NCBI GenBank assembly: GCA_021789895.1
Contig: JAJYIU010000019.1
Location: forward strand, 2,523 to 66,522
Origin: Acidobacteriota bacterium
GTDB lineage: Bacteria; Acidobacteriota; Terriglobia; Terriglobales; SCQP01
Direction: 5' to 3'
Length of the DNA: 64,000 nt
The notes below the pieces were generated by a model that made no database searches, was not told the origin of the DNA, and saw only the letters and a program-made list of their open reading frames with translations. Positions 6,796 through 64,000 of the stretch are shown one piece after another (the stretch's first letter is position 1; every line of letters starts with the position of its first letter). Position numbers and translations under genes: made by a program.

Positions 6796-8019
6796 TCAGG
6801 TCGCGTCCGCTCCCAAGCCGCTCTCTTGCAGCCGTTGGATGGCCAGGCTGGCATTCTGCGCCAGCGCGGCGCGCCGGGGATCGTTTTGGGTAAGCGCATA
6901 GCAGCGATGAAACCAAGCCAGGGCCTGCTGCCGGTCCGGCGCGGTGCCAAGGCCGTGGGCGCATTGGTAGCCCAGGTTATATTGCGCCTCGGCGCAATGC
7001 TGGCTCGCCGCCGCCTGATTCCAGCGCAAGGCGGCATCGTAGTCCTGCAACTCGTGAAGATAGATCTGGCCGAGCAGAAACTGCGCCTGCTGAGCTCCCT
7101 GCAACGCTGCTTTTTGCAGCCAGTACACCGCCTGCTGCAGATCGCGTTCCAGGCGCGACCCCTCGTATAGCACCGAGCCCAGCAGAATCTGCGCCTCAAG
7201 CAAACCTGCTTCCGCGGCGCGGCACATGCCATCCCGAAACTTCTCCGCATCCGGGGCGGCGCCCAGGCCCTGGGCATAGATCAAGCCAAGATAATAATCC
7301 GCTGGCGGATGGCCTTTCGCCGCGGCGCGTTCCAGCCACTCCCGGCTGCGGAGGGGGTCGGCGGCGACGCCCCGGCCCGACAGATAGCATTTGCCGAGCT
7401 CGAACTCAGCCAGCATGAAGCCTTCGCCGGCGGCTTGGGTCAGCCAATGAACCGCTTGCACCTCGTTGCGCTCGACGCCTTTACCCTGCAGATACAACAG
7501 CGCCAGCGAATATTGGGCTTCGCAGATACCCTTTTCCGCCGCCCGCCGATACCAGCGTTGGGCCTGGCCGAGATCCGCCTCCGTGCCGATTCCATCTTCG
7601 TAGAGCCGGCCCAGCGGGGCTGCCGCTTTCACGAAATCGTCTTCGGCGGCTGCGCGCAGCCATTGAAAAGCCTGCGCCTCGTCTTTTTCTACTCCCGTGC
7701 CGGAAAGCAGCAGCGAGGCCAGATTGATGCGCGCCTGCGGATGTCCGTGCTGCGCCGCGCGTTGATACCAAGCCGCAGCCTGAGTCAGATCCTGGGGCAG
7801 CGCCGCGCCGAATTGACTGCACTGGCCCAGCATAAACTCGGCCTCGCGCTCCCCGCCGGCCGCCGCCCGTTTCCACCAGCAGACGGCTTGGGCGCGATCC
7901 TCGGGTTCCGGCCCGCGGCTGAACAGCAGCAACCCCAGCGCGTATTGCGCCTTGGCATTGCCGGCTTCCGCGGCTTGCGCCAGTTGTTCCAGATCGTCGT
8001 GGTGCTCATTCGCGTTCAT
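6796..8019 (-). CDS. Sel1-like repeat (SLR) protein
   Basis: 407 aa with at least 8 SLR units (AQYALGLLLF, AEFMLGQC, AQYSLALLYLQGKGVERN, AEFELGKCYLSGRGV, ADYYLGLIYAQGLG, AQILLGSVLYEGSRLERD, AQFLLGQIY, AQYNLGYQCAHGLG). No signal peptide. Confidence 0.85.
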   Translation of the reverse strand: MNANEHHDDLEQLAQAAEAGNAKAQYALGLLLFSRGPEPEDRAQAVCWWKRAAAGGEREAEFMLGQCSQFGAALPQDLTQAAAWYQRAAQHGHPQARINLASLLLSGTGVEKDEAQAFQWLRAAAEDDFVKAAAPLGRLYEDGIGTEADLGQAQRWYRRAAEKGICEAQYSLALLYLQGKGVERNEVQAVHWLTQAAGEGFMLAEFELGKCYLSGRGVAADPLRSREWLERAAAKGHPPADYYLGLIYAQGLGAAPDAEKFRDGMCRAAEAGLLEAQILLGSVLYEGSRLERDLQQAVYWLQKAALQGAQQAQFLLGQIYLHELQDYDAALRWNQAAASQHCAEAQYNLGYQCAHGLGTAPDRQQALAWFHRCYALTQNDPRRAALAQNASLAIQRLQESGLGADAT

Positions 8020-8036
8020 GCGCTGCGATGGCCTTT

Positions 8037-8828
8037 TTAGCTTCCCAAGGTGTATATTTTCTGGCTATTTTTCTCACTCACGATCCACCGGAGATCGGAG
8101 GGATTGATGGTGATCTTGATCTTATTCAACAACGCGGTGTCCAGCTTTCCGAGATCCGCCGTACCCACAAGCACGTTCAGTGCCATCGGCGCCGGTGCGC
8201 CCGGCGCCTGCTGCGCTCCCTGCAGCGAGCGCAGCATTGCCGCGATCCTGGACTCGATCAGTTTTTGCAGGGGAACGGTCTCGGACTCCGGCTTCACCCC
8301 CTGCGCCAGCCAGAAGGGTGAGGGCTTTACCAGGAGGAGTAGCAGCGGGGCCACTGCCGGTTTCTGCTCCTCTGCGGCAGTTTCATAAAAGTAATTTTGT
8401 ACGCTCAAGGCAAGACTGTGCGCCAGGTCCACAGGATCGGATGCCGGCCGGGAAAGGATCTGCGCAAAACGCTGACTCATGCTTGCCAGGCCTGCCTTCC
8501 AGCGTGCCTGGAGCGGCGCATTCTGGCTGAAGTAATCTTTGAACTCCGGCTGGCTGGGAAAACTGCTCAGTAAATCCTGTAGTTGATAGGTAAGGTTTTT
8601 TTGCACTTCGTCATCTTCGAGGAATGAAGCCGATTCCAGCTTGGAAGCGACCCCGAAGTTCAACTCCATCTCGACGTCGCGCAACTGCATCCGCGGCACC
8701 GGAAAGCCTTTCAACAGCTCATTTTGCAAATAGCCTTCGGCAATGTGAACCGAGGCCCCGTCGCTCATCTGGCGCGCCATCGCCAGTTGTTGCATCAAGG
8801 CTCCGATAAAGGACTCGAGGGTGATCAT
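8037..8828 (-). CDS. DUF2589-like paralog (longer, 263 aa), function unknown
   Basis: N-terminus MITLESFIGALMQQLAMARQM ... GFPVPRMQLRDVEMELNFGV parallels the helix and PIPYIRVEDMSINFNV segment of 3883..4512. Lies 17 bp upstream of the Sel1 gene. Confidence 0.75.
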   Translation of the reverse strand: MITLESFIGALMQQLAMARQMSDGASVHIAEGYLQNELLKGFPVPRMQLRDVEMELNFGVASKLESASFLEDDEVQKNLTYQLQDLLSSFPSQPEFKDYFSQNAPLQARWKAGLASMSQRFAQILSRPASDPVDLAHSLALSVQNYFYETAAEEQKPAVAPLLLLLVKPSPFWLAQGVKPESETVPLQKLIESRIAAMLRSLQGAQQAPGAPAPMALNVLVGTADLGKLDTALLNKIKITINPSDLRWIVSEKNSQKIYTLGS

Positions 8829-8950
8829 TTAGAGTATCTCCCCTGGACCGCTTAATTTTTCCAACACTATACTAAACTTGGCCACAGAATGCATTTCCTG
8901 CTGCACCTGGATGCGGGAAGCAGCGCTTGCAGTAGTAGAGGCTATCTCAC
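8829..8950 (-). pseudogene. Relic of a CarB C-terminal coding end (second, decayed copy)
   Basis: Minus-strand frame reads EIASTTASAASRIQVQQEMHSVAKFSIVLEKLSGPGEIL*. The real carB end is [34 protein letters not shown]. The nucleotide block gcatttcctgc-gcacctg is shared (8891.. vs 9127..). The relic stop TAA (8831..8829) directly abuts ATG 8828. Confidence 0.55.
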
Positions 8951-9083
8951 GATTGAGGTTTTCAGGCGGATTTAGATGAATTTATAAAAGCCATTGACGC
9001 TTCTTTTAGATAGCTTTAAAAATGCTTCCCCTTCTAGTCTTGCAAATGCTTTACGTTTTTTCATCCCTTGCCCGCCATGCCCT

Positions 9084-12404
<3,321 letters not shown>

Positions 12405-13720: not shown

Positions 13721-14075
13721 GCAGACGGCAGGCAAGGCCAAACCGAAAGATGAAAGCGAACGAGCGCAGTCGCCAGGATGAAATGGAACCGGCGGCGGCA
13801 TTGTCCGAAGCGCGATATTGCATCCACGCCGGAATTGTTGTTTACTGTTCCTACACTAGGAAAGGAGGTGGTCCAGTGGACGAAACAGGCAGTCGAATTT
13901 GGACTAGTGAGGTGGCTGAGGCTTAGGCGCTCGCATGCGCCTCGACGCCTTGGTAATCCGGCGCGCCCCGCAAGGGCGCGGCGGAGGCCGCGATCGGTAC
14001 ATGTGACCGCCTCGGCCAATCCCAACAGTACACCGCCCCGCAGCGATTCGCCACGGCGCATCCTTCGGGCTATCC

Positions 14076-14107
14076 GTCAACCCCCGCGGGCAACCGCGGG
14101 GGTTGAC
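14076..14107. repeat. Perfect 14-bp inverted repeat with GCAA loop (REP-like hairpin)
   Basis: gtcaacccccgcgg-gcaa-ccgcgggggttgac. Sits directly after 8 codons of a PIN/VapC-like start (MPFVLDAS). Confidence 0.7.
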
Positions 14108-14143
14108 GCTTGAGGCATCCAGCACAAACGGCATCAGCGTTTT

Positions 14144-26050: not shown

Positions 26051-27790
26051 ATGCATATTGGTCCCAAATTAGTTCCCAAGCCGGCCCTGAAGCAGACGCT
26101 GACGCCGGGGCTGGTACAGATGGTCAACCTGCTGACCCTGAACAAGCTGGATTTGCAGGAAGCGATCACGCAGGAACTGCTGGAAAACCCGCTGCTCGAT
26201 GAGGTTCAGGAGCCGGACGAATCCACCGAGCCGATCACGATCGATCAGCTAATCGAAGCCGAAAGCCGGTTACGCCAGGCCGCGGACCAGGAAGTGCTGG
26301 ATGCGGCACGGGAGCCGGCGGCGGCCGAGGCCCCGGCGCCGGCGGAGGCGGCGGGCGAGGAATCCAGCGCTCCGGCGGCGTATGAAGGGGCGGGAACGTC
26401 CGGCCTGGAAGCCCGCATCGCCGGCGAGCGCCGCGGCGAAGCGGAGGGAGCGGAGACGGGCGCGGAACCCGGAGCGGAAGCGGGAATCGAGGCGGGCGCG
26501 GAGCCGGCGGCGGAAGCCGCCGCCGAGCCCGGGGCGATGGATCCGTTTGAAGAAATCGATTTCGGCGACTTCTTCGAAAAGTACCTCGATCCGGGCAGCT
26601 TTATCGGCGAGAGCGAAGAGATCGAGCGGCCGACCTATGAGAATTTTCTCAGCGCGCCCACCACGCTGACCGACCACCTGCGCTGGCAGCTCAGCGTGTC
26701 GCCCGCGGATGAGGCGGTGCGCGAGGCGGCGGAAGCGATCATCGGCAACCTGGACGAAAACGGCTATCTGACCGCGGATGAAGAGCGCGGCCAGCGCCCG
26801 CTGCAATTGGAGGAAATCGCGGAGGCGGAACAACTGCCGCTGGCGGCGATCCAAGCGGGGCTGGAGCTGGTGCAAAGCTTCGATCCGCCGGGCGTGGCCT
26901 GCCGCGATCTGCGCGAGTGCCTGCTACTGCAGCTCCGACAATGCCCGCTGCTGCAGCCGCTGGCGCTGACGCTGGTGGAAGAGTATCTGCCGGCGCTGCA
27001 AAACCGGGATTACAAGGGGATCGCGCGCGCCCTGGGGGTGCCGGTGGAAAGCGTGCAGGCGGCATTGGCGACCATCCGCAGGCTCGATCCGCATCCCGGC
27101 CGGCGCTACAACAAAGCCCAGGCGCGGCTGATCGAACCCGACCTGTTTTTCGTCAAGGGCCGCGCCCATCCCTGCCCCATCTGCGGGCGCGAAGACTGCG
27201 AAAACGAATACCGCATCCTGCTCAACGACGACGGCCTGCCGCAGCTCACCATCAACCGCGGCTATCGCTCGATGAAGTGGGACAAGAGCGAACGCGAGGT
27301 TTCGCGCTACATCCGCGAGCGCTACAGCAGCGCTATCCAGTTCCTGAAGAACCTGGAGCAGCGCAAGCAGACCATCGCCCGCGTCTGCCACTCGATCATC
27401 GCCCGGCAGGCGGAGTTCCTGGACACCGGCATGGACGCGCTCAAGCCGATGATGATCAAGGAAGTGGCGGAAGAGATCGGCGTCCATCCCTCCACCGTCA
27501 GCCGCGCGGTGGCCAACAAATACGCGCATACCCCGCAAGGCGTGCTGGAGCTGCGCTTCTTTTTCACCGAATCGGTGCAGGGCGAGCGCGGCGGCGAAAC
27601 TTCGCTGGTGAATTTAAAACGCCGGGTCAAGAAACTGATTGAGGAAGAAGACGCGGCGCATCCGCTGACCGACGAGCGGATCACGCTGCTGCTGCGAGGC
27701 GAAGGCATCAACGTCACCCGCCGCACCGTGGCCAAGTACCGCGAAGACATGCACATTCCCTCGACCCACCAACGGCGGCGGAAACCCTGA
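26051..27790 (+). CDS. rpoN: RNA polymerase sigma-54 factor
   Basis: N-terminus LKQTLTPGLVQMVNLLTLNKLDL. Long acidic region II. RpoN box TRRTVAKYRE. Confidence 0.97.
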   Translation: MHIGPKLVPKPALKQTLTPGLVQMVNLLTLNKLDLQEAITQELLENPLLDEVQEPDESTEPITIDQLIEAESRLRQAADQEVLDAAREPAAAEAPAPAEAAGEESSAPAAYEGAGTSGLEARIAGERRGEAEGAETGAEPGAEAGIEAGAEPAAEAAAEPGAMDPFEEIDFGDFFEKYLDPGSFIGESEEIERPTYENFLSAPTTLTDHLRWQLSVSPADEAVREAAEAIIGNLDENGYLTADEERGQRPLQLEEIAEAEQLPLAAIQAGLELVQSFDPPGVACRDLRECLLLQLRQCPLLQPLALTLVEEYLPALQNRDYKGIARALGVPVESVQAALATIRRLDPHPGRRYNKAQARLIEPDLFFVKGRAHPCPICGREDCENEYRILLNDDGLPQLTINRGYRSMKWDKSEREVSRYIRERYSSAIQFLKNLEQRKQTIARVCHSIIARQAEFLDTGMDALKPMMIKEVAEEIGVHPSTVSRAVANKYAHTPQGVLELRFFFTESVQGERGGETSLVNLKRRVKKLIEEEDAAHPLTDERITLLLRGEGINVTRRTVAKYREDMHIPSTHQRRRKP

Positions 27791-48563: not shown

Positions 48564-48902
48564 GATGCTGGGCGAAGCGATAAGCATCGCTGGGCTTCGT
48601 TGTTTTTTCATGCTTTAAGCAAAACCTGCGGTTTTGCTATTGGCTCGGCAATCCTCATGTACGTCCATGTACACCAGGTCGCCTCGCGGCATTGCTAAAA
48701 GCAATTTCTGCGAAATTGCTATTGCGCCTCGCTCTGCTCGCGACTTCTCCTTTCGCAAAACCTTCGGTTTTGCTTGGCTTCGCCTTGACGTTACTGAATC
48801 GCGGAGGGTCGGGACCTGACAGGAAACCCCGACCTTCCCACTCGACCTCGGCATATCTAACTCCCATCGGTGGACTTGTGGACCGCCGCTATTTGCTGCC
48901 GG
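48564..48902 (+). repeat. Dispersed structured repeat, long copy (A)
   Basis: Blocks gatgctgggcgaagcgataagcatcgc, gctcggcaatcctcatgtac-tccatgtacac, cctcgctctgctcgc and ttactgaatcgcggagggtcgggacctgacaggaaaccccgaccttcccactcgacctcggcatatctaactcccatcggtggact are shared with 63305..63550. Copy A has three extra hairpin modules. Confidence 0.85.
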
Positions 48903-52233: not shown

Positions 52234-52262
52234 ATATTCGCATGCGTCCTCAGAACTGTCAA
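52234..52262 (-). promoter_or_regulatory. Putative tRNA-fMet promoter TTGACA-N17-GAATAT
   Basis: Minus strand has TTGACA (52262..52257) and GAATAT (52239..52234). The predicted +1 coincides with the mature tRNA 5' end. Confidence 0.4.
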
Positions 52263-52283
52263 ACCCAGCAGGAACTGCGATTC

Positions 52284-53846
52284 ATGGCGGCACGGGTGGC
52301 GGCGCGGATGGCAGCATGCGTCGCGCTCGGCGCGCTGGCACTCGCCGCGCAAGCGCCGGCGGCAGCCGCGCCCGCCGCCATCGTGCAGGTGAATGCGCGA
52401 CATCCTGGCGCGCGCATTCCCCGGGATTACGCCGGCTTCAGCAATGAAGTTTCCACCGCCGGGATGGGATTGCCGCAACCTTCGGCCCAGGCTGAAGGCA
52501 CAGTGCAGCTTCCGGCGGGCGTGCCGGCCGGGGCGCAACTGGTTTACGCGCTGGGCCGGCCGGGAGCGCCGAATCGCGGTTTTTTCCGCTTCATGCGCAA
52601 CCTCGGCCCGGGCGTACTCCGCCTCGGCGGCAACAGCCAGGACAACACCTGCTGGAAGCCCGCGACCGCACCGCACCCGGATTGGTGCAAAGGAGCGATC
52701 ACCCCCGGCCTGCTGCGGCTCTATGCCCGGGCCGCGCAGGCCTCCGGCTGGCGCCTGATCATCGGATTGAATCTGAAGCAAAACTCGCCGCGCTGGGCGC
52801 GCAGCGAAGTTGCCGGGGGGATTGCGAAAACGATTCCCGCCGCCAGCATCATTGGGCTCGAATTGGGCAACGAACCCAGCCTGTTCGTGCGCACGCCGGC
52901 GCGGCCGAAGAATTATTCACCCGCCGACTACGCCCGCGACGCGCTGGGCTACATCCGCGCGCTGCGGGCCGATCCGCAGACCCGCGGTTATAGCTTCGCC
53001 GGCCCCGCCAACTGCTGCCAATGGAACAATCCGGCCAGCCTGAACCAGATTCTCAGCCGGATCGGGCCGGATTTGAAGCTGGTGACGGTGCACAACTATC
53101 CCACCACGACCTGCGGGCGGCGCAACGTGACGGCGCAGGAGCTGTTGTCGCCGCGCCGCATGGCGAGCTTCGACCGCCTCTCGCGCGCGCTGGCGGCCAC
53201 CGCCCGGCGCCATCACCTGCCGTTGGCGCTGGCGGAAACCAATTCGGCTTCCTGCGGCGGCATGGCCGGCGTCAGCGATGCCTTCGCCTCCGCCGCCTGG
53301 GGGCTCGACTATATGTTCCACACCGCCCGCGACGGCTACACGCTGATCAATTTTCATTTCAGCTACCGCGCCGGCGGCAGCGCGTACAACCCGATCGTGA
53401 CTTTTGGCTGGAAGCAGGGCGGGCGGGAGCGGTACCGCAACCTCGCCCAGCCGCTTTACTACGCCATGTATATGTTCAGCCGCTACGCGGAGGGCGAGCA
53501 TTTTCTGCCGGCGAGAATCACCACCCCGCATCACATCGCCGCCTACGCCACCTCCGCCTGCGGCGCCTGCGCGATCCACGTCTTCGTGATCAACGAAGAC
53601 GCCGCCGCATCCGGCCGCGTCGTTGTACACGTCAACGGACGGCATGGCGGCGCCGCCAGGCTGTTGGCGCTCGGCGCTCCCAGCCTCGACTCGCCGGCCG
53701 GCAGCGTTCGTTTTGGCGGGCGGCAATTCGATTCCGCAGGGCGCATCGCCGCGCCCCGCACCCGCCCGATCGCGCCCGCGCGGCAGGGCGATTATGCCTT
53801 TACTCTGCCCCGGGCCGCCGCGGTGGTGCTGACGATCCGGCGTTGA
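52284..53846 (+). CDS. Secreted glycoside hydrolase, GH79 (beta-glucuronidase/heparanase)-like
   Basis: ORF 52242.., start moved to ATG 52284 (MAARVAARMAACVALGALALAAQA signal) so that it clears the tRNA promoter. LRLGGNSQDN, IGLELGNEPSLF (NEP acid/base motif), LAETNSASCGG. Confidence 0.75.
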   Translation: MAARVAARMAACVALGALALAAQAPAAAAPAAIVQVNARHPGARIPRDYAGFSNEVSTAGMGLPQPSAQAEGTVQLPAGVPAGAQLVYALGRPGAPNRGFFRFMRNLGPGVLRLGGNSQDNTCWKPATAPHPDWCKGAITPGLLRLYARAAQASGWRLIIGLNLKQNSPRWARSEVAGGIAKTIPAASIIGLELGNEPSLFVRTPARPKNYSPADYARDALGYIRALRADPQTRGYSFAGPANCCQWNNPASLNQILSRIGPDLKLVTVHNYPTTTCGRRNVTAQELLSPRRMASFDRLSRALAATARRHHLPLALAETNSASCGGMAGVSDAFASAAWGLDYMFHTARDGYTLINFHFSYRAGGSAYNPIVTFGWKQGGRERYRNLAQPLYYAMYMFSRYAEGEHFLPARITTPHHIAAYATSACGACAIHVFVINEDAAASGRVVVHVNGRHGGAARLLALGAPSLDSPAGSVRFGGRQFDSAGRIAAPRTRPIAPARQGDYAFTLPRAAAVVLTIRR

Positions 53847-55812
53847 GCAGCGCCGGCGCCGGGCGCAAGCGCAGGCGAAGCACGGTAATCGAATCCGCCG
53901 GCAGCGTATAGGCAAACGCCGGCTGGATGCCATTCAATACCGCGCGCCGGGGCACCACATTGCGGCGCCGGGTAATGGAGTTGGTGGCATCGGGAGGGGC
54001 CGAGAGGGTGATGGCGAGCGCGGCGGGCTGCAGCCGGCGCACGCCCTCGAGCCGTATGCGCAGCGGCTGCGCCGCCGGCTGCGGGTTGACCAGCTTGATG
54101 AAGATCTCGCCGGTCCGGCTGTTTTCGGTCACCGAGACGGGGAGCGCCGGATCCGTAAGCGTAGAAGCCAGAATCCAATTGCCATAGTTGCGGCTGAACA
54201 TGCGGATGGCATAGTAGCTGGGCGAGCCGAAGACGTGCAGCGCGTCATAGCCGATCAAATCCGGCCGCCACTGCCGCAGGCCGCGGCCGACGTTGACCAG
54301 CATCGGGGCGTAGGCCTGCATTTTGACGATATCGGAGTTGCGCTCCAGGCCGGTCATCCAAGCAGCGTCCGCCAGCGCGCTCAACATGTCGGGGGTTGGG
54401 GGCAGCGGCTTCGAACGGGGATTCCAGGGCGGGAAGGAAGTTTCGTACGAGGCCCATTCGCCGACGAAAATCTCGGGGCCGCGCCGGGGGTAACCATCGA
54501 AGTGCGCCGTATCGGCGAGAAACTTATGCGCGGGCTCGTAGTAATGCTCGTCCAGCATCCGGGGATGGTCTTGGCGCATGGCGGCCCAGCCGCTCGGGTG
54601 CTCGGTGCCGATGGTGGAGATGCAAATCAGTTGGGGGTAGCGGGCATGGATGGCGCGCTGAAACTGGGCGAAGCGCGCGGGATAGGAATGGGAGCGGTCG
54701 AAGAAATCCTCGTTGCCGATTTCCACATAATGCAGCGGGAAGGGTTTCGGATGCCCGTCGCGCGCGCGCGCCGCGCCCCAACGGCTGGTGACCGGGCCAA
54801 TGACGTACTGAATTTCGTCGAGCGCGTCCTGGACAAAAGGAGCGAGCGCCGGCCCCGGCGCGACATGCTGTTGCCGCAGCGAATAGCCGGCATAGACGGC
54901 CAGCACCGGCTGCGCATGCAGGTCTTCCGCCCAGCGCAGGAATTCGAGCAGGCCCATGCCGTCGGTGGAGCGATAGCCCCAGGGACCCCAATGGCCCGGG
55001 CGGTTGCGCAGCGGGCCGATGGTCTTTTTCCAATCAAAGCGCTGCGCGATGGTGTTCCCTTCCAGAAAATTGCCGCCGGGAAAGCGCAGAAACCGCGGCT
55101 TCAAATCCACCAGCATCTGCATCAGGTCGGGGCGAAAGCCATTGGGCTGGTTGCGCCAGGTGGGCGGAAAAAGCGAGACCAGGCTGAGCCAGATCGTCGC
55201 CGGCTGGCGCAGGGCCAGCACGAAACGCGCCTGCGCGGCCGGCGCGGCATCGCCGGTTTGGAGAAAGAGCCGGTAATGACGCCAATGGGTCGTGAGGCCG
55301 GAGACTTCGCCGCGGGCATACACCTGGCGGCCGTGGCCGTTCTCGATTGAAACCGCAACCGGCCCGGTAAAGCCCGGAGCGGCCTTGGCATAGAAGGCCA
55401 CGCGATAGCGCGTATGAGGGCGCACCGGGATGCCGTCGTAGCCGTCATTGGCGACGCCGGCCGGATGCGCACCGGAAGCCTGCGTGACTTCGAGGCGAAG
55501 GCTGGTGGGCAAAGCGCGGTCGAGCGGCCGGCTGGGATCGAGCGCGATCCGCGCCGCGGATGCGGCGTCGTGCACGACGGCCCAATGCGCGGGCGCGCGC
55601 CGGTCGTCCATAAACGCGCGATTCCGGATCAGTTCGGCATAGAGTCCGCCATCGTAGCTGTGGTTGATCTCTTCCGTCATCAGTCCATAGAGGATAGGGC
55701 TGGCCTGGGCGGCGGGCCTGGCGGCCTGTATGGTCAAGGTGGGCGTCTGGGCGAAGGCGGCCAACAGCAGGCCGAAAGCGGCGGATAAGGCAAACAACCA
55801 GCGAGTTCGCAT
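53800..55812 (-). CDS. GH51 alpha-L-arabinofuranosidase, secreted
   Basis: ORF 53800..55890, start moved to MRTRWLFALSAAFGLLLAAFAQ (ATG 55812, SD GGAG). LRFPGGNFLEGN, YVEIGNEDFF. Confidence 0.92.
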   Translation of the reverse strand: MRTRWLFALSAAFGLLLAAFAQTPTLTIQAARPAAQASPILYGLMTEEINHSYDGGLYAELIRNRAFMDDRRAPAHWAVVHDAASAARIALDPSRPLDRALPTSLRLEVTQASGAHPAGVANDGYDGIPVRPHTRYRVAFYAKAAPGFTGPVAVSIENGHGRQVYARGEVSGLTTHWRHYRLFLQTGDAAPAAQARFVLALRQPATIWLSLVSLFPPTWRNQPNGFRPDLMQMLVDLKPRFLRFPGGNFLEGNTIAQRFDWKKTIGPLRNRPGHWGPWGYRSTDGMGLLEFLRWAEDLHAQPVLAVYAGYSLRQQHVAPGPALAPFVQDALDEIQYVIGPVTSRWGAARARDGHPKPFPLHYVEIGNEDFFDRSHSYPARFAQFQRAIHARYPQLICISTIGTEHPSGWAAMRQDHPRMLDEHYYEPAHKFLADTAHFDGYPRRGPEIFVGEWASYETSFPPWNPRSKPLPPTPDMLSALADAAWMTGLERNSDIVKMQAYAPMLVNVGRGLRQWRPDLIGYDALHVFGSPSYYAIRMFSRNYGNWILASTLTDPALPVSVTENSRTGEIFIKLVNPQPAAQPLRIRLEGVRRLQPAALAITLSAPPDATNSITRRRNVVPRRAVLNGIQPAFAYTLPADSITVLRLRLRPAPALLNAGSSAPPRRPGAE

Positions 55813-55861
55813 TGAGGGCTCCGTCTTGCGATTATAGTGAGCGAAGAAGAAGCGCGGCATA

Positions 55862-56434
55862 GCAAAATGAGACACGTGGGGACGCCGCATGCGCCTAGAT
55901 TAACGAGATAAGTCTTGATTGCAGTGACATATGCGACATAGAAGCCAGAAAAAAGAGACAAACTGGCGTTTTAGAAAAACACTGCTTCAAATTTTTTTAG
56001 CAAAACGGCACCCGAGGCCTGAAATCGGGGTTAAACGCTCTAGTTTCAATGATTTGATCGGGTGCCGTTTGCAATTTAAAACGGCACCCGAAACGGCACC
56101 CGATGAGCAGAGTTGCTGCCACGGGGAGACGTTGATGCCGATATACACAATGGCAGCGATAAACGCGACATTGCAAAATGAGACACCCGCAAACCCGAAT
56201 GCATCAAGATAGGCAAGATAAGCCCTTATAGCAGTGACAGATGCGACGTAGAAACCAGAAAAAAGAGACAAATTGGCGTTTTAGAAAAACACTGCTTCAA
56301 ATTTTTTTAGCAAAACGGCACCCGAGGCCCGAAATCTGGGTTAAACGCTGTATTTTCAATGATTTAATCGGGTGCAGTTTGCAATTTAAAACGGCACCCG
56401 AAACGGCACCCGATGAGCAGAGTTATTGCCGCCG
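55862..56434. repeat. Two-copy tandem duplication (period about 310 bp) in AT-rich divergent intergenic region, with a 12-nt motif array
   Basis: Copy 1 is 55862..56124 and copy 2 is 56173..56434, roughly 90% identical by eye from agataag onward. AACGGCACCCGA occurs at 56004, 56080, 56092, 56314, 56390 and 56402. It is inverted at 56058 and at 56368 (one mismatch). Confidence 0.9.
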
Positions 56435-56468
56435 GGAGGACGGCACCGGCTTGGATTACCATCGAGGC

Positions 56469-57614
56469 ATGAAAGATAGGACACGGCGTGAATTTCTAGC
56501 CGCGGGCGGGGCCGCGCTCGCCGCCGCTCCCCTGGCCGGCAGGGTGTTGGCTTCCGCGCCTTACGCGCCGCCGCCCGCGCCGGCGGCAGGCACGGTTGGC
56601 TATTGCATTGTGGGCTTGGGACGCGTCTCGATCGGACAATTCCTGCCCGGGCTGCGGTATGCGCCGCATGCCCGCCCGACCGCGCTGGTGAGCCGCGATC
56701 CGGGCATCGCCGCGATCATCGCCCGCCGCTATGGCATAGAGCCGCGGCATATCTACAACTACGCCAACTTCGACCGGATCGCCGACGACCCCGCCATACA
56801 GGCGGTCTATATCGCCCTGCCCAACGCGCTGCACGCCGAATACAGCATTCGCGCCGCGCGCGCCGGCAAGCACGTGTTGTGCGAAAAGCCGATGGCCGCC
56901 AACTCCGGGCAGGCCGAGCGGATGGTCGAGGCCTGCCGCCGCGCCGGACGCAAGCTGATGATCGCCTACCGCTGCCAATACGAGCCGGCGACGCTGCGCG
57001 CCCGCCAGGTGGCGCGCTCGGGAGAACTGGGACCGCTGCAAATGATCACCGCCCGATACGGGTTCAATATCTCGCCCACATTTCGCCTGATGGGCGAGAC
57101 GCGGCCCGAATGGCGGCTGAAGAGGGCGCTGGCCGGCGGCGGTCCGCTGATGGACGTAGGCATCTATTGCCTTAACGCCGCCCGCTTCATCAGCGGCCAG
57201 GAGCCCGCCGCGCTGCAGGCGGAAATCGGCAACACGCCCGGCGACGCGCGCTTTCGCGAAGTGGAAGAGAACCTGAGTTGGAGCATGCGCTTCGCTTCCG
57301 GCCTGACGGCCGCGTGCGCCACCAGTTATGGCGCCAGCCTGGGCGAAAGCTTCGAGCTGTACGGCGCGCGCAACGCTTCGCTGCGGCTCGACCCCGCCTA
57401 TGGATATTCCAGCCACCGGCTGGTGGCCGGCGGCGCGGCGCCGAGGCTCGATTTCACGCCCGATTTTTCCGGCCACCGGCAGTTCGGCGCCGAAGCCGAG
57501 CACTTCGCGCGCTGCATTCTGGAAAACCGCGAGCCGCGCACGCCGGGGGAGGAAGGGCTGCGGGACATGCGGCTGATGGCACGCATTTATGCCGCCGCGG
57601 GAGTAAAGGGATAA
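56469..57614 (+). CDS. Gfo/Idh/MocA-family oxidoreductase with Tat signal
   Basis: ORF 56241.., start moved to ATG 56469 (MKDRTRREFLAAGGAALAAAPLAG). GYCIVGLGRVSIGQFLP (Rossmann). HVLCEKPMA. Confidence 0.9.
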   Translation: MKDRTRREFLAAGGAALAAAPLAGRVLASAPYAPPPAPAAGTVGYCIVGLGRVSIGQFLPGLRYAPHARPTALVSRDPGIAAIIARRYGIEPRHIYNYANFDRIADDPAIQAVYIALPNALHAEYSIRAARAGKHVLCEKPMAANSGQAERMVEACRRAGRKLMIAYRCQYEPATLRARQVARSGELGPLQMITARYGFNISPTFRLMGETRPEWRLKRALAGGGPLMDVGIYCLNAARFISGQEPAALQAEIGNTPGDARFREVEENLSWSMRFASGLTAACATSYGASLGESFELYGARNASLRLDPAYGYSSHRLVAGGAAPRLDFTPDFSGHRQFGAEAEHFARCILENREPRTPGEEGLRDMRLMARIYAAAGVKG

Positions 57615-57755: not shown

Positions 57756-59786
57756 TCAACCGGGCGGGGGTTCATACACTTCCAAGCCGACCGATTGCAT
57801 CAGCTTTAAAGCATTGCTGGAGCGGGCCACGCCGGGCAGAAGGCGGTAATCGAAGCAGAGCTGTCCGGCCTCGAAGCGGTCGTCGAAATGGAAGTTGCGC
57901 GCCGCCGCGACGGTTTCCGGAATTTGCGCCAGCGCCAGGTCGTGGGTGGTAACCAGGCCGAGGGCGCCGCGGGCAAGCAGGGCGCGGGTGATGAGGCGGG
58001 CGCCGGCATAGCGGTCGTGGGAGTTAGTGCCGGAGAGCAACTCGTCCAAGAGAAAAAGCAGCGGGCGGGGGCCGGCGGCGAGATCGGCGAGCAGCTTCAG
58101 GCGGCGGATTTCGGCATAAAAGCGGGAGACGCCGCCCTGCAGGGAATCGAGCACGCAGATAGAAGCGCCGACGGCGAGGGGCGAGAGGCGCAGGCGGCGG
58201 GCGCGCGCCGGGGCTCCGCACTGAGCCAGCACGGCATTGATGCCGACGCCGCGGAGAAAAGTGCTTTTGCCGGCCATGTTGGGACCGCTGATCACCAGCA
58301 GGCGGGTTCCGGCATCGAGCCGCAGATCGTTGCCCACGGCGCGCGATTCCGGCAGCAGCGGGTGCGCCAGCGCTACGGCCTCGAACAGCGGGCCGCCGGC
58401 GGCAAATTCGGGCCAGACATCGCCGGGATGCTCCCAGGCATAGCCGCCGAGCGAGGCGAGCGCTTCCAACTCGCCGACGGCGGCCAGCCAGGCGCGCACC
58501 GCGGGGCCGAAATGCCGCCGCCAGTTTTCCACTCCCAGCGCCAACAGGGCGGCGTAGAAGACGAGCGGCGACAAGGGCTGCAGAATCAGATTGCGCCGCG
58601 ACTCGAGGCTTTCGACCAGGCGCCGCAGGCGCGCGACCGCTTGCGCCGGCGCGGCGCCGGCGGCGATCAGATCGTGGCGCAGGCGGCACAGAGCGGGCGC
58701 CTCGAATGCTTCCTGCTCGATCAGCGCCAGCACGCGCGCCAGCGGCCGCAAGTCCGCGGCAACGCTCTCGACGGCGGCGATGGAGGCTTCGACGCGCGGC
58801 TTGAGCAGGCGGCTGAGGCCGAGATTGAGCAGCGAGACGAGCAACAGCGGCAGCCAATTCCAGGTTGCGAGCGCAAAGACGGCGGCAGCCAGCCAGAGCG
58901 CGGCCAAGGGCGCCAGCAAAGCGGCTAAAGCCGGAATGCGGCGAAAGAGCGGAGGCGAGGCGCCCCAATCGGCAAACGCTTCGGGCAACGAGGCGGGAGG
59001 CACGCGCGGGGCGTTGTTTGGCGCAATTCCTGCGGAATTGCTTGAATTGGGCGCAATTCCTGCGGAATCGTTTGAGCCTGGCGCAATGCCTGCGGAATTG
59101 CTTGAGCCTGGCGCAATGCCTGCGGAATCGCTTGAGCCTGGCGCAATTCCTGCGGAATTGCTTGAGTTGGGCGCTATTCCGGTGGAATTGCTTAGCTTGG
59201 GCGCGATTCCGGCGGCAGGGGTTTTGCCGGGCGCCATGCCGGCGCTGACGGCGAAGAGGCGCTCGCGGAAATCCAGGCGGGCGCCAAGCTCGCGCGCGGC
59301 CGCCTGGCGGCTCAAGACGATTTCCGGCAGAGCGGGCGCGAGCAGCCAGGCGGCCAGGGTGGCTTCGCCGGCGCGGGTGCGGGCGGCACAGAGCAACTCG
59401 AACAGCGAGCCGGGGCCGAACAGATCGAGATCGCGCGCATAAGGATGAGCCGGGTCAAGGAAGTTTTCGCCGCCGGCGCCGGCGCCTGCCCAGCGGTCTT
59501 CCAGCCGGGCAAGGCCGCGCGCGTAGAACTCCAGGCGGGATTGGCTGCGGCGCAGGCCGCGGAGCAGGCGCTCGTGCGCGGCGATCATGGCCACCAAGCC
59601 GGCGGCGGCAGGAACCAGCAGCGGCGCCAGCCAAGCGGAATGGCGCAGAGCGACGGCGGCGAGCATGGCGGCGGGCACATAGGCGAGCTTGGCGTAGCCC
59701 AGGCGGTCGCTCCAGCACCGGCGGCGGGCTACCAGCACGCCGAGAGCATCCAGTTGACGGCGGTAAATGGCGGCGGGGGATTCCAT
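57756..59786 (-). CDS. Membrane-anchored MutS-related protein (MutS domain V ATPase, no mismatch-binding or Smr domain)
   Basis: LLVISGPNMAGKSTFLRGVGINAVLAQ (Walker A). LFLLDELLSGTNSHDR. TTHDLAL. N-terminal and central hydrophobic helices. DLDLFGPGSLFELL core motif. Confidence 0.85.
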   Translation of the reverse strand: MESPAAIYRRQLDALGVLVARRRCWSDRLGYAKLAYVPAAMLAAVALRHSAWLAPLLVPAAAGLVAMIAAHERLLRGLRRSQSRLEFYARGLARLEDRWAGAGAGGENFLDPAHPYARDLDLFGPGSLFELLCAARTRAGEATLAAWLLAPALPEIVLSRQAAARELGARLDFRERLFAVSAGMAPGKTPAAGIAPKLSNSTGIAPNSSNSAGIAPGSSDSAGIAPGSSNSAGIAPGSNDSAGIAPNSSNSAGIAPNNAPRVPPASLPEAFADWGASPPLFRRIPALAALLAPLAALWLAAAVFALATWNWLPLLLVSLLNLGLSRLLKPRVEASIAAVESVAADLRPLARVLALIEQEAFEAPALCRLRHDLIAAGAAPAQAVARLRRLVESLESRRNLILQPLSPLVFYAALLALGVENWRRHFGPAVRAWLAAVGELEALASLGGYAWEHPGDVWPEFAAGGPLFEAVALAHPLLPESRAVGNDLRLDAGTRLLVISGPNMAGKSTFLRGVGINAVLAQCGAPARARRLRLSPLAVGASICVLDSLQGGVSRFYAEIRRLKLLADLAAGPRPLLFLLDELLSGTNSHDRYAGARLITRALLARGALGLVTTHDLALAQIPETVAAARNFHFDDRFEAGQLCFDYRLLPGVARSSNALKLMQSVGLEVYEPPPG
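59020..59215 (-). repeat. In-frame 30-bp tandem repeat (about 6.5 units) inside the MutS-related gene
   Basis: Units start at 59020, 59050, 59080, 59110, 59140, 59170 and 59200 (ggcgcaattcctgcggaattgcttgaRYYg). They encode the (S/N)SNSAGIAPG decapeptide array. Confidence 0.9.
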
Positions 59787-62465: not shown

Positions 62466-63335
62466 ATGAGCGCTACAGCGCAACAACTTTATCAGCAGCA
62501 GTTGGAGTCCATCATCCTCGCGGGCGAGGAGCTGAATTTTCGGCGCGCGGCGGCGCGGCAAGGGATTTCGGAAGCCACGCTGCGGCGGGTGATTGCGGCG
62601 CAGGAGGCGAAATTAGGCTACGCGCTATTCCAGCGCGCCGGCCGCGGGCTGCGGCTGACCCCCGGCGGAATCGAGTTTCTGCAGCACGCGCGGCGGCAAT
62701 TGTTGCGCGAGCTGAGCGGCGCCGCGAAGCAGGCGGAGCAGCGCCCGCTGCTGGTGGGCTACTCGCCGCATGTCAACCCCGCGCTGCTGGTTTGGCTGCG
62801 CCGCCAGTACGCAATCCAGCGGCAAAGCTGCCGGACGCTGAGCCTGGGGTCGCTCGAGCAGGCCGGGCTGGTGCGCGACGGGTGGCTGGATGCCGGGCTG
62901 GTGCTCTGCCCGCTGGCGGCGGTGGGAGTGAAAATTGCGCCCAGCTTTTGCGAAGCGCTGCAGGTGGCGCTGCCCGCCCGGCATGCGCTGGCGCGGGCGG
63001 AGAGGCCGCTCGAAATCGCCGAATTGCGCGGGCTGCCGATGATCGGCCTGGCGCAACACCTGCACCGGCCGCTGGCCGCACGCTTTCAGCAAATCTGCCG
63101 GCGGCACGGGCTGGAGCCGGAAATCGCCGGCGAGGCGCTTCATATAAGCGAAGCCATCGCGCAAGTGGCGGCGGGCAAGGGATTCTGTTTTGCGCGCGGC
63201 TGCGACCAGCGTTTTGCCGGGCCGGGGGCGGCGTTTCGCCCGCTGGCGGGCACTCCGGCGGTGATCCTTACCGGGATTCTCTTTCGCCACGGCGCGGAAT
63301 TGCCGATGCTGGGCGAAGCGATAAGCATCGCATAG
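62466..63335 (+). CDS. LysR-family transcriptional regulator (paralog of 61178..62125)
   Basis: LESIILAGEELNFRRAAARQGISEATLRRVIAAQEAKLGYALFQRAGRGLRLTPGG. The last 10 codons lie inside repeat copy B. Confidence 0.85.
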   Translation: MSATAQQLYQQQLESIILAGEELNFRRAAARQGISEATLRRVIAAQEAKLGYALFQRAGRGLRLTPGGIEFLQHARRQLLRELSGAAKQAEQRPLLVGYSPHVNPALLVWLRRQYAIQRQSCRTLSLGSLEQAGLVRDGWLDAGLVLCPLAAVGVKIAPSFCEALQVALPARHALARAERPLEIAELRGLPMIGLAQHLHRPLAARFQQICRRHGLEPEIAGEALHISEAIAQVAAGKGFCFARGCDQRFAGPGAAFRPLAGTPAVILTGILFRHGAELPMLGEAISIA

Positions 63336-63550
63336 CTTCGTTGGTTCGTCGCTCGGCAATCCTCATGTACATCCATGTACACTGCGGTTGCCTCGCGCCT
63401 CCCGCCTCGCTCTGCTCGCTTCTCCCTTCGCCTTGGCGTTACTGAATCGCGGAGGGTCGGGACCTGACAGGAAACCCCGACCTTCCCACTCGACCTCGGC
63501 ATATCTAACTCCCATCGGTGGACTCGTGAGCCGCCGCTAGATGCTGCCGG
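63305..63550 (+). repeat. Dispersed structured repeat, short copy (B)
   Basis: Collinear with 48564..48902 but lacks its three hairpin inserts. About 95 nt around the 11-bp hairpin ggagggtcggg/cccgaccttcc are identical. Confidence 0.85.
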
Positions 63551-63650
63551 AGGAGAACGGCGCGTTTCCGGCGAGCGTATTGTAAAGCGACGGGCTGGTA
63601 TACTGAACCGCCGCATAGATATCAGCCGCGGCCGCCGCTCATGCCTTTCA

Positions 63651-64000
63651 CGAACCCGCTCCTTCGCCTGCAACATTTTTACCGCGCTTGCCTGACGCCG
63701 GCTACGCTCGTGCTGACGGCGCTTGCCCTGGCGCCGCCGGCACCGGCGCAGGCGTTTATCCGCCGGCAAGGCGGCCATTACCTGCTCGGCAACCGCTACC
63801 TGGTGCGCGTCATCGGCCTGCACGCCGGGCGGGTGCAAACCCTGGCGCTGCGCAATCGCATGGACGGGCGCAGCTATGCGGTTTCCGGCGGCGAGTTTCA
63901 ACTGCGGCTGATTCGCGAGCGGGTGGGCTACAGCTACGGCGGGCAGAATCCGTGGACGCTCGACGCGCGCGATTTTCTGGCCTCCGCGCCGGCAATTCGC
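63651..64000 (+). CDS. Partial CDS (5' end) of a secreted hypothetical protein, runs off the window
   Basis: ATG 63651. The frame has no stop to 64000, so it is absent from the ORF track. MPFTNPLLRLQHFYRACLTPATLVLTALALAPPAPAQA is signal-like. Codon bias is GC3-rich. Confidence 0.5.

Follow-up and report, generated by a model that had tools for sequence, protein, structure and literature searches.

What role is played by a long, AT-rich spacer that carries one short sequence eight times between two divergently oriented genes of an acidobacterial chromosome? We analyzed such a spacer in a 64-kb window, meaning here the whole stretch of DNA of 64,000 nucleotides. The spacer occupies 55813-56468 (656 bp) and separates a GH51 arabinofuranosidase gene on the minus strand, whose start codon is at 55810-55812, from a Gfo/Idh/MocA oxidoreductase gene on the plus strand, whose ATG is at 56469 and whose protein begins with a twin-arginine signal (MKDRTRREFL). 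It is the longest of the 24 intergenic regions in the window, which have a mean GC content of 57%. The GC content of the spacer was found to be 47.6% (41-52% per 200-nt windows) versus 65% for the window, in agreement with the initial annotation, which had described it as far more AT-rich than the surrounding DNA; two other intergenic regions of the window are equally AT-rich. The chromosomal neighbours are housekeeping genes (carAB, ruvC, rpoN, lptB, gmk, and coaBC). The nearest regulators are two LysR genes, which had been called adjacent and actually lie 4.7-6.9 kb from the spacer. A sigma-70 scan recovered a perfect -10 box (TATAAT) for the GH51 gene at 55831-55836 on the minus strand, about 19 nt upstream of its start codon and outside the site array, and found no promoter next to the arrays. 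No exact match to the IHF consensus was found in the spacer.

The spacer is made up of two direct repeat units of ~280 bp. Unit 1 spans 55848-56128 (281 nt) and unit 2 spans 56159-56438 (280 nt). The units align with 89% identity over 244 nt at an offset of 310 nt, and with 88% identity over a further 26 nt at an offset of 311 nt, which reproduced the tandem duplication originally described at an offset of 310-311 bp with about 90% identity. The 30-nt linker between the units (56129-56158) could not be aligned and has no clear homology; it probably consists of degenerated copies of the DNA adjoining the Gfo and GH51 starts. Each unit also contains the run of seven T residues that had been pointed out (55992-55998 and 56302-56308).

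Within these units, the same motif recurs. The 12-mer AACGGCACCCGA, searched at ≤1 mismatch, has eight matches in the window, all of them in the spacer, compared with 0.42 ± 0.61 expected, and none of 100 shuffles reached eight. The matches are located at 56004, 56080, 56092, 56314, 56390, and 56402 on the plus strand and at 56058 and 56368 on the minus strand, and the eight-site array first proposed is statistically solid. Outside the spacer, a search of the window at ≤3 mismatches revealed no excess of the 12-mer (29 found versus 24 expected). The full motif is a 13-mer, AAACGGCACCCGA, which occurs four times per unit and is absent from all other parts of the 64 kb. All sites but one are identical over the 13 nt; the exception is the minus-strand site at 56368, which carries a C-to-A change at 56376.

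The four sites of each unit have a defined geometry. In unit 1, site S1 (56003-56015, plus strand, AAACGGCACCCGA) is followed 42 nt later by S2 (56058-56070), which has the opposite orientation and could form with S1 a 13-nt stem around a 42-nt loop, as had been noted. S2 and the plus-strand site S3 (56079-56091) together form a perfect 34-bp palindrome at 56058-56091, which reads TCGGGTGCCGTTT-GCAATTTA-AAACGGCACCCGA. It has a 13-8-13 structure in which the 8-bp spacer, GCAATTTA, is asymmetric. Site S4 (56091-56103, plus strand) is a direct copy that abuts S3 with a 12-nt period and shares one base with it; S3-S4 amounts to a 12-nt tandem duplication of 2.1 copies. Unit 2 keeps this layout over 56313-56413. 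Its site S1' is at 56313-56325 on the plus strand, and the S2'/S3' palindrome spans 56368-56401 with the C-to-A change in its left arm, its dyad centre being ~85 nt upstream of the Gfo ATG. Site S4' (56401-56413, plus strand) ends 55 nt upstream of that ATG. The motif scan reproduced the described arrangement of three direct copies and one inverted copy per unit, two of the direct copies abutting. The lox/FRT-type 13-8-13 geometry had been overlooked in the initial annotation, as had the strongly uneven divergence within the units and the fact that a syntenic relative lacks the element, both described below. Only two perfect hairpins with arms of ≥10 bp were found in the 64-kb window, S2/S3 and one at 14075-14108. 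The latter is intergenic, downstream of carA; its 15-bp stem is perfect, its loop is GCAA, and it probably serves as a terminator.

The two units have not diverged evenly. We compared the core of unit 1 (55945-56112), which contains the A/T tracts and the four motif sites, with the aligned core of unit 2 (56255-56422), and found differences at 7 of 168 positions (4%). In the left flank (55848-55944), 25 of 97 positions differ (26%; Fisher p=5e-7). On the basis of this alignment, the cores are either constrained or have been held alike by gene conversion. The motif columns were no better conserved than the remaining core columns (p=0.68), so gene conversion, and not selection acting on the sites, could account for the conservation of the core. 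The changes recorded in the core comprise the seven between units and four strain SNPs, and just one of them falls in a site.

A second assembly containing the locus, L019 (ENA ERZ27233565), is 99.9% identical to the window over 14.98 kb. Both assemblies carry the two units in collinear order, and neither presents an excised or inverted variant. A Logan contig was identical to the window allele and breaks inside the repeat at 55993, as is expected for a repeat. The window and L019 differ by 11 SNPs over the 14.98 kb, 8 of which cluster in 134 bp of unit 1 (55908-56041; binomial p=7e-15). None of the SNPs is in unit 2 and none is in a motif site. With unit 2 as the outgroup, three of the clustered SNPs were derived in the window and five in L019, and five of the eight involve bases present in neither unit of either strain. 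This pattern rules out point mutation in place as the source of the tract and implies a recombination event whose donor was diverged: a different allele, or a paralogue not seen here.

The spacer sits in a 14.7-kb segment bracketed by two copies of a different, dispersed repeat of ~250-340 bp (90-95% identity), located at 48564-48902 and 63305-63550 in the window; a further copy is at 1-77 in L019. The first copy contains three extra small hairpin inserts, such as CATGCTTTAAGCAAAACCTGCGGTTTTGCTATTG. Each of the three copies ends a short distance upstream of a gene that lies on its own strand, and the repeat has no significant Rfam match. The 99.9% identity between the window and L019 holds only between the copies of this repeat, and the flanks (1-48563 and 63540-64000 in the window; 1-2095 and 17073-21146 in L019) are unrelated. 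The mismatch of the flanks can be explained by a genuine rearrangement at a multi-copy repeat or by a join that one of the assemblies made there.

The source is an Acidobacteriota-like bacterium of soil, and homologues bear the names Terriglobia and Bryobacteraceae. The closest syntenic relative, L054 (a 494-kb contig), has 67-80% nucleotide identity and the same gene order, LysR - amidohydrolase - MutS_V - Gfo / GH51 - 527-aa protein, with two extra genes between GH51 and the 527-aa gene. Its Gfo and GH51 genes are also divergent, and they are separated by a spacer of only 144 bp, which has no motif. The only recognisable similarity of that spacer to the one in the window is a segment containing the GH51 5'-UTR and -10 box (CTCCGT...GCGATTATAG at 55819-55837). 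The motif-free spacer of L054 indicates that the array is not an ancestral regulatory feature of the GH51/Gfo pair. Two further relatives, L020 and L022, have spacers of 106 and 92 bp upstream of Gfo. Among the relatives compared, the AT-rich core and its site array are thus confined to the lineage of the window. The most economical explanation is that a short ancestral spacer gained an insert of ~170-210 bp and was then duplicated nearly in full; a loss in the lineage of L054 would be the less economical alternative.

The genes around the spacer have features of their own. The upstream side of Gfo is different in each of the four lineages compared. In L020, which has the closest Gfo protein (75% identity), the region directly upstream of Gfo (7445-9894) encodes a 178-aa Phage_integrase fragment (E=6e-6) flanked on either side by an unknown ORF. 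Adjoining GH51 in the window is a gene for a conserved 534-aa protein (52242-53846) whose L054 orthologue is 76% identical at the nucleotide level. The protein has no Pfam family and a weak GH79 C-terminal hint (E=0.02), and it may be an unclassified glycoside hydrolase. On the minus strand at 57756-59786 is a gene for a 676-aa protein with MutS domain V, whose L054 orthologue is shorter (603 aa). About nine tandem 30-nt units, 62-89% identical, are located inside this gene at 58989-59274 and would encode a decapeptide repeat.

To place the element among known sequences, we searched for the repeat unit, its motifs, and its possible products. No further copy was found within the 64-kb window, and no related match was found in the genome and metagenome collections. 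A search of 185,579 species genomes for the motif pair returned 18 loci, all unrelated tandem repeats and mostly of a coding ETAPE type. In the JGI metagenomes, the palindrome pattern matched no locus and the motif pair matched 28 unrelated loci. None of four patterns matched in IMG/VR, and blastn of one unit against plasmids and phages gave no match. The concatenated translations of six spurious ORFs had no match at E≤10 among 5.8 billion proteins, and two cluster mates, P0122 and P0123, were unrelated 47-aa proteins of a flagellar locus. A literature search with the 12-mer returned eukaryotic primer sequences only. A Pfam scan of the called ORFs of the window found no PF00589, tyrosine or serine recombinase, transposase, Rep, tnpI, tnpA, or reverse transcriptase. 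The element is real and statistically solid, its sites follow a clear internal grammar, and it bears marks of recombination. Neither a homologue nor a cognate protein was found, and the comparisons with relatives support no particular function.

Several readings of the spacer were rejected. The short ORFs described in each unit are indeed open on both strands. The claim that most differences between the copies are non-synonymous held in terms of counts (plus strand, 9 non-synonymous and 3 synonymous; minus strand, 7 and 6), but these ratios are near the neutral expectation and the ORFs have no protein homologue, which argues against coding. It is highly improbable that the spacer specifies a structured RNA (for example an sRNA, a leader or attenuator, or a pair of terminators) with the 13-mers as alternative helices. 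S2 is able to pair with S1, S3, or S4, and when both strands of both units were folded, unit 1 folded slightly better than shuffled sequence (z -2.8), but unit 2 reached a z of just -0.8. The Rfam comparison proposed with the initial annotation gave no match, either at gathering thresholds or at E≤10. The C-to-A change at 56376 is uncompensated, as had been observed, no U-tract follows the hairpin on either strand, and the flanking genes are divergent, so no terminator is needed between them. These results, together with the near-neutral ORFs, agree with the earlier preference for protein-binding sites over an RNA helix.

The initial annotation had left three options for the array: a replication origin, integrase arm sites, or a multi-operator region. 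The origin can be dropped, and the other two are retained as candidates. The spacer contains no DnaA box at ≤1 mismatch, there is no rep gene and no turn of the GC skew, and the chromosomal context is one of housekeeping genes; the abutting repeats have a 12-nt period with two copies per unit and are not iterons of 17-22 bp. Iteron plasmid origins and partition centromeres (the 12-bp tubC repeats, parC) are alike in having short abutting direct repeats and an inverted copy by A/T-rich DNA, but here only two copies abut per unit, and the core chromosome around them provides no rep or par gene, DnaA box, or change in GC skew. A replication terminus was rejected because there is no dif-like XerD arm and no turn of the GC skew. 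The two units are also not the TR/VR pair of a diversity-generating retroelement (DGR), since their differences involve all four bases, both units are intergenic, and no reverse transcriptase was found. For a sigma-54 promoter, the best match was TGGCAGCAACTCTGCT (56106-56121, minus strand), which has two mismatches with ~0.17 expected and is not significant. Plus-strand matches resembling -24/-12 elements (CGGCACCCGATGAGCA) occur at 56094-56109 and 56404-56419 at chance level, their GGCAC coming from site S4; rpoN itself is encoded in the window at 26051-27790. The proposal that the LysR proteins bind the array gained no support, as LysR1 has an orthologue in L054 and LysR2 in L020, two relatives without the element.

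Taken together, the features make it most likely that a protein recognises the array as double-stranded DNA. The reading that we tentatively favour, as a possible rather than a probable one, is that a protein whose gene lies elsewhere in the genome binds the array, which acts as a shared operator for GH51 and Gfo. Each unit would then be a protein-binding module acting at the DNA level, with four 13-bp sites in A/T-tract DNA: the dyad S2/S3 with its 13-8-13 structure, S4 as a direct copy that abuts it, and, farther off, S1 in the orientation opposite to S2. The module would have arrived within the ~170-210-bp AT-rich, lineage-specific insertion in what was a short divergent promoter region, after which nearly the whole spacer would have been duplicated in tandem. 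The protein might bind with one subunit per 13-mer and oligomerise over the dyad and the flanking copies. The array would thereby serve as a shared operator or upstream regulatory array for two divergent glycan-utilisation genes, the unit 2 array lying 55-155 nt upstream of the Gfo start and the unit 1 array 170-270 nt upstream of the GH51 -10 box. The two arrays, 310 bp apart, could cooperate through DNA looping.

The shared-operator reading is consistent with the rejection of the coding and RNA readings, with the excess of sites over expectation (eight versus 0.42, with no excess elsewhere in the 64 kb) and with their position between two divergent starts, that is, in the promoter region of the candidate target genes. 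It is also consistent with the slow divergence of the core (4% versus 26% in the flank), in which nearly all changes spare the sites, and with the presence of both units in the window and in L019, the window allele being found in the independent Logan contig as well. Against it, no regulator gene adjoins the spacer, the orthologous spacer of L054 has no sites, no sigma-70 promoter was found by the arrays, the sigma-54-like matches are at chance level, and the motif columns are not specially conserved within the core (p=0.68). Apart from the one C-to-A change, the sites are identical over 13 nt, and 13-bp arms around an 8-bp spacer are more typical of recombinases. The operator sets of transcription factors are usually degenerate, with half-sites of 4-7 bp. 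The araO2-araI, deoO1/O2/OE, and bioO operators likewise place repeated sites between divergent sugar-related genes, in clusters a few hundred bp apart that could loop. However, the half-sites of those operators are short and degenerate, and their regulator is encoded close by or controls a wider regulon, whereas the sites studied here are 13 bp long and identical, have no adjacent regulator, and are missing from the orthologous promoter region of a relative.

The main rival, raised by the site geometry, sees in the array an orphan or relic recognition site for a Cre/Flp/TnpI-type tyrosine recombinase, in which S2/S3 is the crossover core, S4 and S1 are accessory arm sites, and the whole arrived with a mobile element. 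We regard this as somewhat doubtful. Like loxP and FRT, the palindrome has two perfect 13-bp inverted arms and an asymmetric 8-bp spacer, 34 bp in total, and there are two such sites in direct orientation; the full FRT has a third arm abutting its core, as S4 abuts S3. Unlike loxP and FRT, the sites are in a chromosomal promoter region rather than in a phage or plasmid, have no recombinase gene within the 64 kb, and have a fourth copy 42 nt off on the other side, and no recombination products were seen in the two assemblies. The layout of four motifs also resembles the internal resolution sites (IRS) of Tn4430 and Tn5401, at which TnpI acts and where one motif occurs four times in ~100-116 bp, as an inverted core pair with direct accessory copies. 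The Tn5401 site doubles as an operator. In the IRS of Tn4430, the core spacer is 4 bp, cuts are staggered by 6 bp, and the two accessory motifs flank the core on the same side (PMC2847244). Here, an accessory copy adjoins the core on one side and the other is 42 nt off on the opposite side; no Tn3-family transposon or tnpI is present, and the spacer contains no Tn3-like terminal repeat. A published prediction of Cre-type sites used inverted arms of 13-15 bp with ≤2 asymmetries and an 8-bp spacer, searched within 1 kb of a recombinase gene, and had an experimental success of ~50% (PMC10250229). By this geometry, 56058-56091 is perfect and 56368-56401 has one asymmetry. The identical copies of the site would fit a young element, the AT-rich insertion is specific to the lineage, and the Phage_integrase fragment upstream of the L020 Gfo orthologue indicates that the junction upstream of Gfo has hosted integrative DNA. 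On the other hand, the 64 kb encode no tyrosine recombinase, serine recombinase, or transposase, and the palindrome pattern is missing from the viral, metagenome, and plasmid and phage collections. Directly repeated sites 310 bp apart could mediate the excision or amplification of a unit and, if active, should collapse to one unit; the retention of both collinear units in the two assemblies, with no excised or inverted variant, counts against an active recombinase. A more elaborate version, in which the units are cassettes of a recombination-driven promoter module, a tyrosine recombinase encoded elsewhere acts on the lox/FRT-like 34-bp sites and adds, removes, or inverts 310-bp units, a phase or dosage switch through the copy number or orientation of the regulatory DNA between GH51 and Gfo, and the unit 1 hot spot is a trace of this activity, seems to us very improbable.

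The same observations can be read without any function for the sites. The spacer would then be a neutral structural by-product, in which AT-rich filler or foreign DNA acquired the S3-S4 microduplication, template switching produced the palindromes S1/S2/S3, unequal exchange duplicated the spacer, and the palindromes provoked gene conversion. S3-S4 is indeed a plain tandem duplication of 12 nt, the motif columns are not more conserved than the rest of the core, and the SNP hot spot of unit 1 shows that the locus is recombinationally unstable. A syntenic relative also has the same genes without the element, and no homologue was found in the genomes, metagenomes, viruses, plasmids, phages, and proteins searched. 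But to arrive at four identical 13-mers with three different spacings and orientations, several rare events would have had to occur independently, the sixfold gap in divergence between core and flank must rest wholly on gene conversion, and the duplicate was kept although tandem repeats tend to be lost. We consider this explanation unlikely. It is still less probable that the element is a low-copy dispersed mobile repeat of a MITE-, REPIN-, or BIME-like type, with the strain differences in unit 1 produced by ectopic gene conversion from other copies. The five clustered SNPs found in neither unit of either strain would suggest an unseen donor copy, the element is an insertion relative to L054, and the genome has other dispersed repeats with nested small hairpin inserts. 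However, no second locus of the element turned up in the 64 kb or among the other loci compared, no copy is present in the ~6 kb of L019 that differ from the window, no terminal inverted repeat or target-site duplication was found at the core boundaries, and neither the 185,579 species genomes nor the JGI metagenomes contained a match.

The element fits known kinds, namely operator or iteron arrays and recombinase sites, and does not define a new one. As the orphan of a single lineage, the locus has a modest immediate value. Should its sites prove to be targets of a recombinase, the 34 bp would offer a new lox-type site ready for use, and the enzyme could be sought in the same genome. If the array binds a protein, the promoter region would have gained a complete multi-site control module in one step, through the insertion of ~200 bp of foreign AT-rich DNA and the doubling of the spacer, in a phylum in which gene regulation is almost unstudied.
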